Of a stretch of DNA of 58,499 nucleotides, positions 30,219-30,566 are shown one piece after another (the first letter of the stretch is position 1; each line of letters begins with the position of its first letter). The translations under genes and the position numbers were made by a program. The DNA lies in assembly GCA_965369445.1 (NCBI GenBank), contig CBDUQU010000002.1:1-58499 (forward strand), read 5' to 3'. The notes beneath the pieces are model-generated. The model saw only the letters and a list, made by a program, of their open reading frames with translations. It searched no databases and was not told the origin of the DNA. This DNA is from an uncultured bacterium. GTDB taxonomy: Bacteria > Zixibacteria > MSB-5A5 > SM1-73.

Positions 30219-30292
30219 CGCGGGGTGGAGCAGGCTGGTAGCTCGTCGGGCTCATAACCCGAAGGTCGCAGGTTCAAATCCTGCCCCCGCTA
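30219..30292 (+). tRNA. Initiator tRNA-Met (anticodon CAT)
   Basis: CGCGGGGTGGAGCAG...CTCATAA...GGTTCAAATCC. C1:U72 mismatch, three consecutive G:C pairs (GGG/CCC) closing the anticodon stem, near-identical to the E. coli tRNA-fMet body. CCA is not encoded. Confidence 0.9.
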
Positions 30293-30566
30293 TTTTTTCA
30301 TGCCTCGAAAACACCTTTCACTTTGATTTCCTGCAGGCTGACAGTTCGTCCGCCGCCGAAGTCGGGGGGAGGTCGCAGGTTTGCTTCGGCTTACAGCCTC
30401 AGCACTATCGCAAATCCTGCCCCCGCTATTTTTTCATGCCTCGAAAACACCTTTCACCTTGATCTCCTGCAGGCTGGCAGTTCATCCCCCCCCGAAAGCG
30501 GGGGGAGGTCGCAGGTTTACTTCGGCTTACAGCCTCAGCACTATCGCAAATCCTGTCCCGCTATTG
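30275..30566 (+). repeat. Tandem repeat (136-bp period, about 2.1 copies) seeded in the tRNA-fMet T-loop
   Basis: caaatcctgcccccgctatttttt recurs at 30275 and 30411, and as a degenerate copy at 30547. Units are about 90% identical. Each unit contains aggtcgcaggtt, a 29-nt insert, then caaatcctgcccccgct. Confidence 0.85.

Follow-up and report, generated by a model that had tools for sequence, protein, structure and literature searches.

Positions 1 to 58,499 of contig CBDUQU010000002.1 (GenBank assembly GCA_965369445.1), the stretch of DNA that we analyzed and call the window, carry an initiator transfer RNA (tRNA) gene, tRNA-Met(CAT) or tRNA-fMet, which is followed by an array of 136-bp repeats resembling the tRNA itself. 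On balance, we favor the reading that this Met array consists of two tandem, gene-less (non-autonomous) copies of an insertion cassette that targets tRNA-fMet and restores the gene. The reading draws on what can be observed of these cassettes: their anatomy, their family relationships, their presence or absence in different strains, their link to genes for GIY-YIG nucleases and their conservation across phyla. Loci from other genomes and metagenome contigs are designated below by L numbers.

The window holds two tRNA genes, tRNA-Ser(GCT) at 591-684 and tRNA-Met(CAT) at 30219-30292, both on the forward strand like the promoter, units, GIY-YIG genes and pseudo-tRNAs of their loci. The latter was called by ARAGORN and Rfam (30218/9-30292/3, 61.9 bits). 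It is intact, does not encode its CCA end, and has the C1 mismatch and the GGG/CCC anticodon stem of an initiator. A sigma-70 promoter at 30181-30208 (TTGACA, 16 nt, TATATT) matches at 11 of 12 positions and is kept in orthologous loci. Two 136-bp units lie 3' of the gene, followed by a third, decayed tRNA 3' fragment. Tandem Repeats Finder gives a period of 136, 2.1 copies and 92% matches at 30275-30565, and a repeat search puts 30275-30410 and 30411-30546 at 93% identity. The 18-nt tRNA 3' segment caaatcctgcccccgcta, found in the tRNA at 30275, recurs exactly at 30411-30428, while a third copy at 30547-30563 has decayed (one C changed to T, one C missing) and is followed by a different flank. 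The units thus have the tRNA 3' segment as a direct repeat at both ends, and it is the displaced copy that is altered, the tRNA-proximal copies being identical to the tRNA.

We resolved the anatomy of the units by aligning those of the window with those of relatives and by mapping exact matches to the tRNA, in addition to reading the sequence and running repeat finders. Each unit begins with a T run and a variable spacer of about 36-40 nt, followed by the D loop with the 3' strand of the D stem, a GC hairpin, the variable loop with the 5' strand of the T stem, a 29-nt insert placed between T55 and C56, and finally the rest of the T arm with the 3' strand of the acceptor. In unit 1 (30293-30428), the T run occupies 30293-30298, the spacer extends to about 30332, a decayed D loop and D stem lie at 30333-30350, and an imperfect GC hairpin takes the anticodon-arm position at about 30351-30369; then come aggtcgcaggtt (30370-30381; 30263-30274 in the tRNA), the T-loop insert (30382-30410) and a perfect tRNA 3' segment (30411-30428). 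Unit 2 (30429-30563) repeats this order, with a T run at 30429-30434 and then its spacer, a D-like segment at 30469-30486, the hairpin at 30488-30505, aggtcgcaggtt at 30506-30517, the insert at 30518-30546 and the decayed tRNA 3' segment at 30547-30563, after which the native flank ttgaatcctgac resumes; L003 has the same flank.

An earlier note on this DNA, based on its letters alone, had described the array as interrupted pseudo-copies of the 3' half of the tRNA. The pseudo-copies, the recurrence of caaatcctgcccccgcta and aggtcgcaggtt and the 29-nt insert all stand at the coordinates it gave, as sequence reading and Tandem Repeats Finder agree, but the extent of the copies was understated. 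A degenerate version of the tRNA D loop and D stem (gcaggctggtagctcgtc), reading gcaggctgacagttcgtc, precedes the hairpin, so each unit is a near-complete pseudo-tRNA that runs from the D loop to the 3' end. This part is decayed in the window and exact in L006 and L023. Identity to the tRNA is therefore not confined to a block from the T loop to the 3' end, since it also covers the D loop, the variable loop and the 5' strand of the T stem. The GC hairpin had likewise been misplaced: it does not sit where the variable loop would be, as this loop (aggtc) is retained immediately 3' of it, and occupies instead the place of the anticodon arm. The hairpins of the window Met units are decayed variants of a TCCCGCC-NNN-GGCGGGA hairpin. 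The units contain no open reading frame (ORF), no terminal inverted repeats and no target duplication, and their only location is at the tRNA. Past the array, at 30590-30612 (and at 4575 in L003), gagccagagttcaaatcggagac includes the tRNA T-loop 9-mer gttcaaatc and may be an older, strongly decayed tRNA fragment.

The same modules recur at the other tRNA gene of the window. The motif GGTTNNCTTCGGCT has four exact matches in the window (1148, 1532, 30378 and 30514), every one of them at a T-loop junction, when 0.33 would be expected by chance with one mismatch allowed. T-loop inserts of a CTTCGG type are shared by Met and Ser pseudo-tRNAs: only 3 of 2000 shuffles reach the alignment score observed between the Met insert and the Ser insert L035b, and 2 of 2000 reach that of the Met-type insert of L019 against either Ser insert of L035. 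By these permutation tests, the Ser and Met inserts are homologous. The TCCCGCC-NNN-GGCGGGA hairpin is likewise present in the pseudo-tRNA-Ser of the window and in the pseudo-tRNA-fMet of L001, L006, L024, L029, L039 and L046. Homologous inserts and a common hairpin support the view that one element family shaped both loci, which bears out the common family that the earlier note had suspected at the two genes.

The hairpin module substitutes for tRNA sequence, and the exact-match map reveals no accompanying duplication. It replaces nt 26-37 at every Zixibacterial tRNA-Ser(GCT) locus where the map places both junctions, and the anticodon arm in tRNA-fMet and in a Patescibacterial tRNA-Ser(GGA). 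Over 135 kb of non-redundant loci, 31 hairpins have the form CCGCC-N3-5-GGCGG, and 25 of them directly adjoin an 8-mer that the local tRNA also contains. One unit of L029 has the hairpin and an uninterrupted T loop, which makes the 29-nt insert an optional module in its own right. A scan of genomes for the junction between D arm and hairpin returned nine matches, of which three are real (L024, L028, which is the same as L001, and L029) and six are chance matches that lack a tRNA context and come mostly from GC-rich genomes. A metagenome scan for an interrupted tRNA-fMet T loop returned only seven contigs, and L017, L018 and L020 proved to be insert-free duplications of the 3' segment.

A few related arrangements deserve mention. 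A metagenome contig (L019, 1-103) has still smaller tRNA-fMet units of about 77 bp, which combine the tRNA 3' segment and a 24-nt spacer with gtcgcaggtt and a T-loop insert of 25 nt; the hairpin and the D-loop part are both absent. In L045 (3885-3900 and 4236-4250), the pseudo-tRNA-fMet retains its anticodon arm and has a palindrome, TTCGCCGCGGCGAA or TTCGCCGTGGCGAA, in place of the variable loop. The first of these contains CCGCGG, which PMC2241918 gives as the site of the GIY-YIG restriction enzyme Cfr42I, a match that is perhaps a coincidence. The window also has a composite hairpin at 23368-23405 (gtcattgcgag-CCCCCC gtat GGGGG-acgaagcaatc), and in L003 (5310-5420) the same cattgcgag/gaagcaatc repeat encloses a CCCGCC-aga-GGCGGG hairpin; the GC hairpin module therefore exists outside pseudo-tRNAs too.

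The tRNA-Ser locus contains what the Met array lacks, namely genes. Downstream of the intact tRNA-Ser(GCT), called by ARAGORN and Rfam, lie two units of about 500 bp, each made of a small GIY-YIG gene and then a pseudo-tRNA-Ser, whose segments we located with the exact-match map. GIY-YIG gene 1 (725-982) encodes an 85-aa protein of the Slx1/UPF0213 type (PF01541, E 1.8e-15), the nearest structure being the UPF0213 protein BH0048 (PDB 1zg2, E 2.4e-8). Pseudo-tRNA-Ser 1 (985-1212) opens with a D-arm-like segment and the hairpin TCCCGCCTTTGGCGGGA (1004-1020), and continues with tRNA nt 38-63 (1021-1046), a 77-nt insert (1047-1123), a second hairpin (1124-1140), tRNA nt 63-74 (1141-1152), a 41-nt T-loop insert (1153-1193) and tRNA nt 74-92 (1194-1212). 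GIY-YIG gene 2 (1228-1494) is 76% identical to gene 1 at the DNA level. Its YIG motif reads YKG, and it lacks a stop codon ahead of its pseudo-tRNA, its frame staying open through the hairpin and the T-loop insert to 1644. Database homologues show comparable read-through tails ('AELAEVPP..GG'). Pseudo-tRNA-Ser 2 (1495-1664) is composed of tRNA nt 13-25 (1495-1507), the hairpin (1508-1524), tRNA nt 63-74 (1525-1536), a 111-nt T-loop insert (1537-1647) and tRNA nt 74-90 (1648-1664). A 20-mer within this long insert, CCCATACGGGCCCGTCTGGG (1583-1602), occurs again at 44757-44776 (95% identity) and at 4288-4307 (80% identity), and may be an additional small repeat nested in the insert.

The association of nuclease gene, tRNA and pseudo-tRNA extends beyond the window. 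Modules of the Ser type adjoining a GIY-YIG gene occur in the window (725-1664), in other Zixibacteria and in one Patescibacterium (L037). Close GIY-YIG homologues on fetched contigs lie immediately 3' of a tRNA-Ser in five cases out of five; all five continue into a D-arm-like segment and the hairpin, and then into the remainder of the tRNA except in L013. The Patescibacterial genome has an equivalent layout at tRNA-Ser(GGA), where TCCCGCCAGGGCGGGA stands in place of the whole anticodon arm, together with a T-loop insert and a 5' pseudo-copy upstream of the tRNA. L007 has a second type of GIY-YIG gene whose 3' end continues directly into a T-loop-type insert. The nuclease is maintained by selection: 20 GIY-YIG homologues all retain the catalytic Tyr, Tyr, Gly, Arg, His and Glu, and the ratio of nonsynonymous to synonymous substitution rates is 0.05-0.17 (0.16 for gene 1). 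Viral contigs gave two weak GIY-YIG matches, neither of them close to a tRNA, and the junction between hairpin and tRNA-Ser was not found in them; a plasmid collection gave one weak match only. In L033, tandem GIY-YIG genes (1118-1280 and 1485-1650) are identical over about their first 150 nt and clearly divergent thereafter, as if gene conversion had recently spread from the tRNA 3' segment into the gene.

Comparison of the tRNA-fMet locus among relatives, which the earlier note had proposed, reveals that the number and the mix of units differ, with zero to three units downstream, two types of spacer, and mirror-image units upstream. The gene upstream of tRNA-fMet is YceG/MltG, whose homologues put the window in Candidatus Zixiibacteriota. 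We compared the orthologous YceG-tRNA-fMet locus across ten lineages, expressing YceG identity relative to the window (100%), which has no upstream unit and two downstream units of spacer type W. L046 (97%) has one upstream unit and three downstream (L, W and truncated W); L001 (96%) has one upstream and none downstream; and L003 (94%) has none upstream and two of spacer type L downstream. The single upstream unit of L006 (93%) is accompanied downstream by a 530-bp element with a 93-aa ORF and then two units, and that of L039 (91%) by an integrase island. L041 (82%) lacks upstream units and has a tyrosine integrase directly 3' of the tRNA. At least two upstream units are found in L029 (75%), with one unit downstream, and in L024, where their period is 126 bp and the contig ends downstream. 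In L045 (70%), which has no upstream unit, the tRNA is followed by one gene-less unit and then by one with a frameshifted GIY-YIG gene flanked by hairpin-interrupted pseudo-tRNA-fMet. The absence of cargo and integrase that the earlier note had remarked upon therefore holds for the Met array of the window and not for the family, given the GIY-YIG genes at the Ser locus, the one in L045 and the tyrosine integrases of relatives. Cassette-type units were found in Zixibacteria, in metagenome-assembled genomes labelled Ignavibacteria and in one Patescibacterium.

Units inside one array are 90-93% identical, and the window, L003 and L046 differ in how they combine the two spacer families. The unit types are common to the strains and their combinations change, which is how cassettes behave and not slippage. 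The upstream units mirror the downstream ones: the native promoter is followed by tRNA nt 1-12 or 1-27, the hairpin or hairpins, the variable loop, the T arm, about 110 nt, a promoter-like copy and the intact tRNA. In L039, L046 and L029 their T-stem reads gttgg, next to a resident tRNA that has gcagg. Since gttgg is the native allele of the L045 lineage, these upstream units came from another lineage. The upstream units of L001 and L006 now have gcagg, consistent with conversion by the neighboring tRNA gene.

These observations suggest a simple model for the cassettes, which adjoin an intact tRNA (3' or 5' of it) and whose far boundary is a pseudo-tRNA with tRNA-identical stretches of at most about 26 nt between hairpin modules. 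The position of the crossover, the part played by the nuclease and any function of the hairpin belong to the model and not to the observations. A cassette carries at its tRNA-proximal end a replacement tRNA 3' segment (from C56 in the T loop to the discriminator) with a T run, and at its distal end a pseudo-tRNA extending from the D loop to the T loop, in which the GC hairpin stands for the anticodon arm and the 29-nt module interrupts the T loop. If the cassette pseudo-tRNA and the chromosomal tRNA recombined by a single crossover to one side of the hairpin, the outcome would always be an intact tRNA plus a copy that bears the hairpin. Exchange in the 3' segment would give downstream cassettes, and exchange in the 5' segment upstream mirror-image cassettes, which would accumulate. 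For the window units, we place the exchange in caaatcctgcccccgcta(tt), the 18-20 bp stretch shared 3' of the T-loop module; insertion would keep the intact tRNA upstream and move the former 3' end farther from the gene. Arrays could grow and be reshuffled through successive insertions and unequal exchange. Autonomous relatives would be those with an 80-107 aa Slx1/UPF0213-type GIY-YIG nuclease between tRNA and pseudo-tRNA, where the nuclease may initiate recombination in a homing-like manner. Deletion between short repeated tRNA segments could turn gene-bearing cassettes into gene-less ones and may leave a lone T-loop insert; the window Met units would be non-autonomous derivatives of this kind. 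The hairpin modules would limit uninterrupted homology with the live tRNA to no more than about 26 nt, and might also serve in recognition by the nuclease.

Several points weigh against this model. An empty site with the downstream flank of the window was not found in the compared loci, and in L013 the tRNA copy ends after 'taag', the duplicated tRNA 3' end being absent. The GIY-YIG proteins are bare catalytic domains that lack a DNA-binding domain, unlike known homing endonucleases, and their activity in the cassettes is a prediction. The self-immunity logic usual for homing elements does not obviously apply, because the rebuilt tRNA is identical to the target. The Met spacers have no sequence similarity to any GIY-YIG gene, so that the putative status of the Met units as deletion derivatives is read from their architecture. 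The model gives no account of how the same hairpin came to lie at equivalent parts of three different tRNAs. Lastly, tyrosine integrases use this tRNA in relatives, and the actual catalysis could be theirs.

This last point leads to the strongest rival, which we consider rather unlikely: the units would be attachment (att) scars of an integrase or satellites of the cis-mobilizable kind that lack one, and the GIY-YIG genes mere cargo. A tyrosine integrase encoded elsewhere would recombine the core of tRNA-fMet between T loop and 3' end, the units being tandem minimal att-flanked remnants. Its strength comes from the use of tRNA-fMet by integrases in relatives, where a tyrosine integrase gene lies directly 3' of the tRNA in L039/L040 and L041-L043, and from the classical scar in L006, whose 530-bp element ends with a 22-nt block identical to the tRNA from T loop to 3' end. 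Plain duplications of the tRNA-fMet 3' end also occur in other phyla (L018 and L020), and an 18-nt direct repeat stands on both sides of every unit. Against this, a tblastn search of the 58-kb window with the L041 and L039 integrases found no homologue, integrases being confined to islands of relatives that are separate from the units, and no integrase is called within the fetched 1.5-2.5 kb either side of the Ser or Patescibacterial loci, which share the modules. The homology of the pseudo-tRNAs extends to the D loop, far past a core site that the 29-nt insert would moreover split; 136 bp would make a very small attP site; and the mirror-image upstream units would require a crossover in the 5' part of the tRNA. 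Plain scars also leave the hairpin substitutions unexplained.

It is improbable, in our view, that the units instead encode a functional structured RNA co-transcribed with the tRNA, such as a tRNA-like decoy or antitoxin (directed against a nuclease that attacks tRNA), a terminator or stabilizer, or a guide RNA. The units do lie 3' of a strong promoter and have none of their own, and each is closed by a long composite hairpin and a U run (z-score -2.4). Hairpin stems are conserved despite sequence change, with compensatory changes in two pairs, and a pseudo-tRNA lies in the 3' untranslated region of GIY-YIG genes or within their read-through. However, the covariation check gave a term of only -0.47, no real support for a conserved structure, and in the outer stem of the T-loop insert a G to A change in 4 of 9 aligned units is uncompensated. 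Rfam 15, searched at its gathering threshold and also at E up to 10 over 30150-31350 and 500-1750, returned nothing credible besides tRNA, and a strict scan found no terminator in the array. The 5' acceptor strand is absent, which precludes a tRNA-like L-shape, and the hairpins and D-like segment of the window are decaying.

A more speculative extension of the cassette model, to which we give little credence, would treat the hairpin-interrupted pseudo-tRNA as the homology guide of a homing system that is both programmable and structure-specific. The segments that it shares with the tRNA would, in the form of RNA (the 3' end of the GIY-YIG mRNA) or of DNA, pair with the tRNA gene, while the constant hairpins, unable to pair, would protrude as branches. 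The Slx1-like domain, having no DNA-binding domain of its own, would cut the branched structure and so trigger copying of the cassette. The constant hairpins would then be a scaffold, and the exchangeable tRNA segments (Ser-GCT, Ser-GGA, fMet) the guide.

The head-to-tail units and variable copy number might point to an immobile, functionless satellite that arose when the tRNA 3' region slipped or was duplicated in place. This is largely refuted and most improbable in light of the only 90-93% identity within an array, the two spacer families in strain-specific combinations, the recurrence of the hairpin and T-loop modules at a second tRNA and in a second phylum, and the foreign tRNA allele of the upstream units. 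Of the options listed in the earlier note (att scars, a tRNA-derived satellite or a structured RNA), none fits as well as an array of cassettes.

Some narrower ideas were also set aside. The 3' arm of the hairpin (GGCGGGG) could mimic the 5' acceptor strand of tRNA-fMet and form a minihelix, but the same hairpin is found in copies of tRNA-Ser, whose acceptor strand it cannot pair with. A split or intron-containing tRNA of the archaeal type is contradicted by the bacterial neighbor genes and promoter. If a nuclease simply cut the anticodon region of the live tRNA gene, repair from the cassette would transfer the hairpin to the sole functional copy of that gene. The spacers show no similarity that would make them remnants of GIY-YIG ORFs. 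The hairpin might still be the circle junction of an insertion sequence or a recombinase core site, but its 3-nt spacer suits the sites of neither tyrosine nor serine recombinases.

Other repeats of the window deserve a brief mention. A terminator-like palindrome with the CCA end and a T run spans 681-714, just past tRNA-Ser; its core at 683-703 lies between ctccgc direct repeats (677-682 and 704-709). This palindrome, ATGAACCATAYGRTTCAT, occurs twice in the window when none would be expected, in the regions 677-709 and 23531-23560, each time between 6-bp direct repeats (ctccgc and cagcgg, respectively), and resembles a tiny mobile palindrome with target-site duplication. The first bases of the copy at 683-703 provide the 'CA' of the tRNA-Ser CCA end. 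Two long tandem repeats, at 13238-14458 (444-bp period, 2.8 copies) and 57247-58403 (period of about 159 bp, 6 copies), appear unrelated to the tRNA cassettes.

tRNA genes are classic landing sites for mobile DNA, and the known players are islands that bear integrases. What we describe looks like a different and much smaller tenant of these genes, with cassettes of about 80-500 bp that encode at most a minimal Slx1-like GIY-YIG nuclease. If so, the family would account for one origin of assembly breaks and junk ORF tails ('...AELAEVPP..GG') in metagenome annotation, and would pose the mechanistic question of how the same hairpin is placed at equivalent positions of different tRNAs. None of the systems compared below joins a bare GIY-YIG domain with a tRNA target and with hairpin-substituted pseudo-tRNAs. 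Our literature searches, whose coverage was incomplete, yielded nothing on bacterial tRNA-linked GIY-YIG cassettes, only fungal mitochondrial and unrelated papers; an earlier description is possible, so the cassette family is only apparently undescribed.

Islands at tRNA genes share with the cassettes the insertion at a tRNA gene whose 3' end is restored, the direct repeats of the tRNA 3' segment, the tandem arrays, and the use of T-loop and anticodon-loop regions; integrase islands even occupy the same tRNA in relatives. Williams reportedly distinguished, in 2002, sublocation classes for integration within tRNA genes, and tandem accretion is known for integrase-less cis-mobilizable elements. 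The cassettes differ in having units of 77-136 bp without a recombinase, a pseudo-tRNA that reaches the D loop, loops replaced or split by conserved hairpin modules, mirror-image units on the 5' side, and a partner gene for a GIY-YIG nuclease instead of an integrase.

Elements of the repetitive extragenic palindrome (REP) and bacterial interspersed mosaic element type, miniature inverted-repeat transposable elements (MITEs) and mitochondrial GC-cluster or double-hairpin elements are short GC-rich palindromes with constant arms and variable loops. The cassette hairpins resemble them in these features and in recurring at defined kinds of sites, as does the second small palindrome of the window in lying between 6-bp direct repeats. 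They differ in that TCCCGCC-N3-GGCGGGA substitutes for tRNA segments, with no target-duplicating insertion, and is nearly confined to pseudo-tRNAs.

Free-standing endonuclease elements known as mobile ORFs in fungal mitochondria bring a replacement 3' end to the gene they invade, as in atp6 of Allomyces and in atp6, atp9, cox2 and nad3 of Glomus (PMC3630166). Their endonucleases are of the LAGLIDADG type, or GIY-YIG in atp9 (PMC3630166). The likeness is in an endonuclease ORF with the completing 3' copy on one side and the native 3' end, displaced, on the other, an arrangement found at the Ser locus (725-982 and 1228-1494) and, frameshifted, at tRNA-fMet in L045, with none in the Met units of the window; evidence of horizontal transfer is another common feature (PMC3630166). 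Here, by contrast, the target is a bacterial tRNA gene, the inserted copy is identical to the native one and not divergent, hairpins replace parts of the displaced copy, the nuclease amounts to a bare Slx1-like domain, there are arrays of gene-less derivatives, and the immunity logic must be another.

Closest in sequence are the prokaryotic stand-alone GIY-YIG domains, which belong to the Slx1 cluster (PMC1564403). The text of that paper does not mention a link of these proteins to tRNA genes or pseudo-tRNAs. Our nucleases belong to their sequence family, with UPF0213 and PDB 1zg2 as reference (E 2.4e-8 to BH0048), and share their minimal catalytic domain with its conserved Tyr, Tyr, Arg, His and Glu. 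If our reading is correct, the cassettes would provide a concrete biological context for the widespread stand-alone UPF0213 GIY-YIG proteins.

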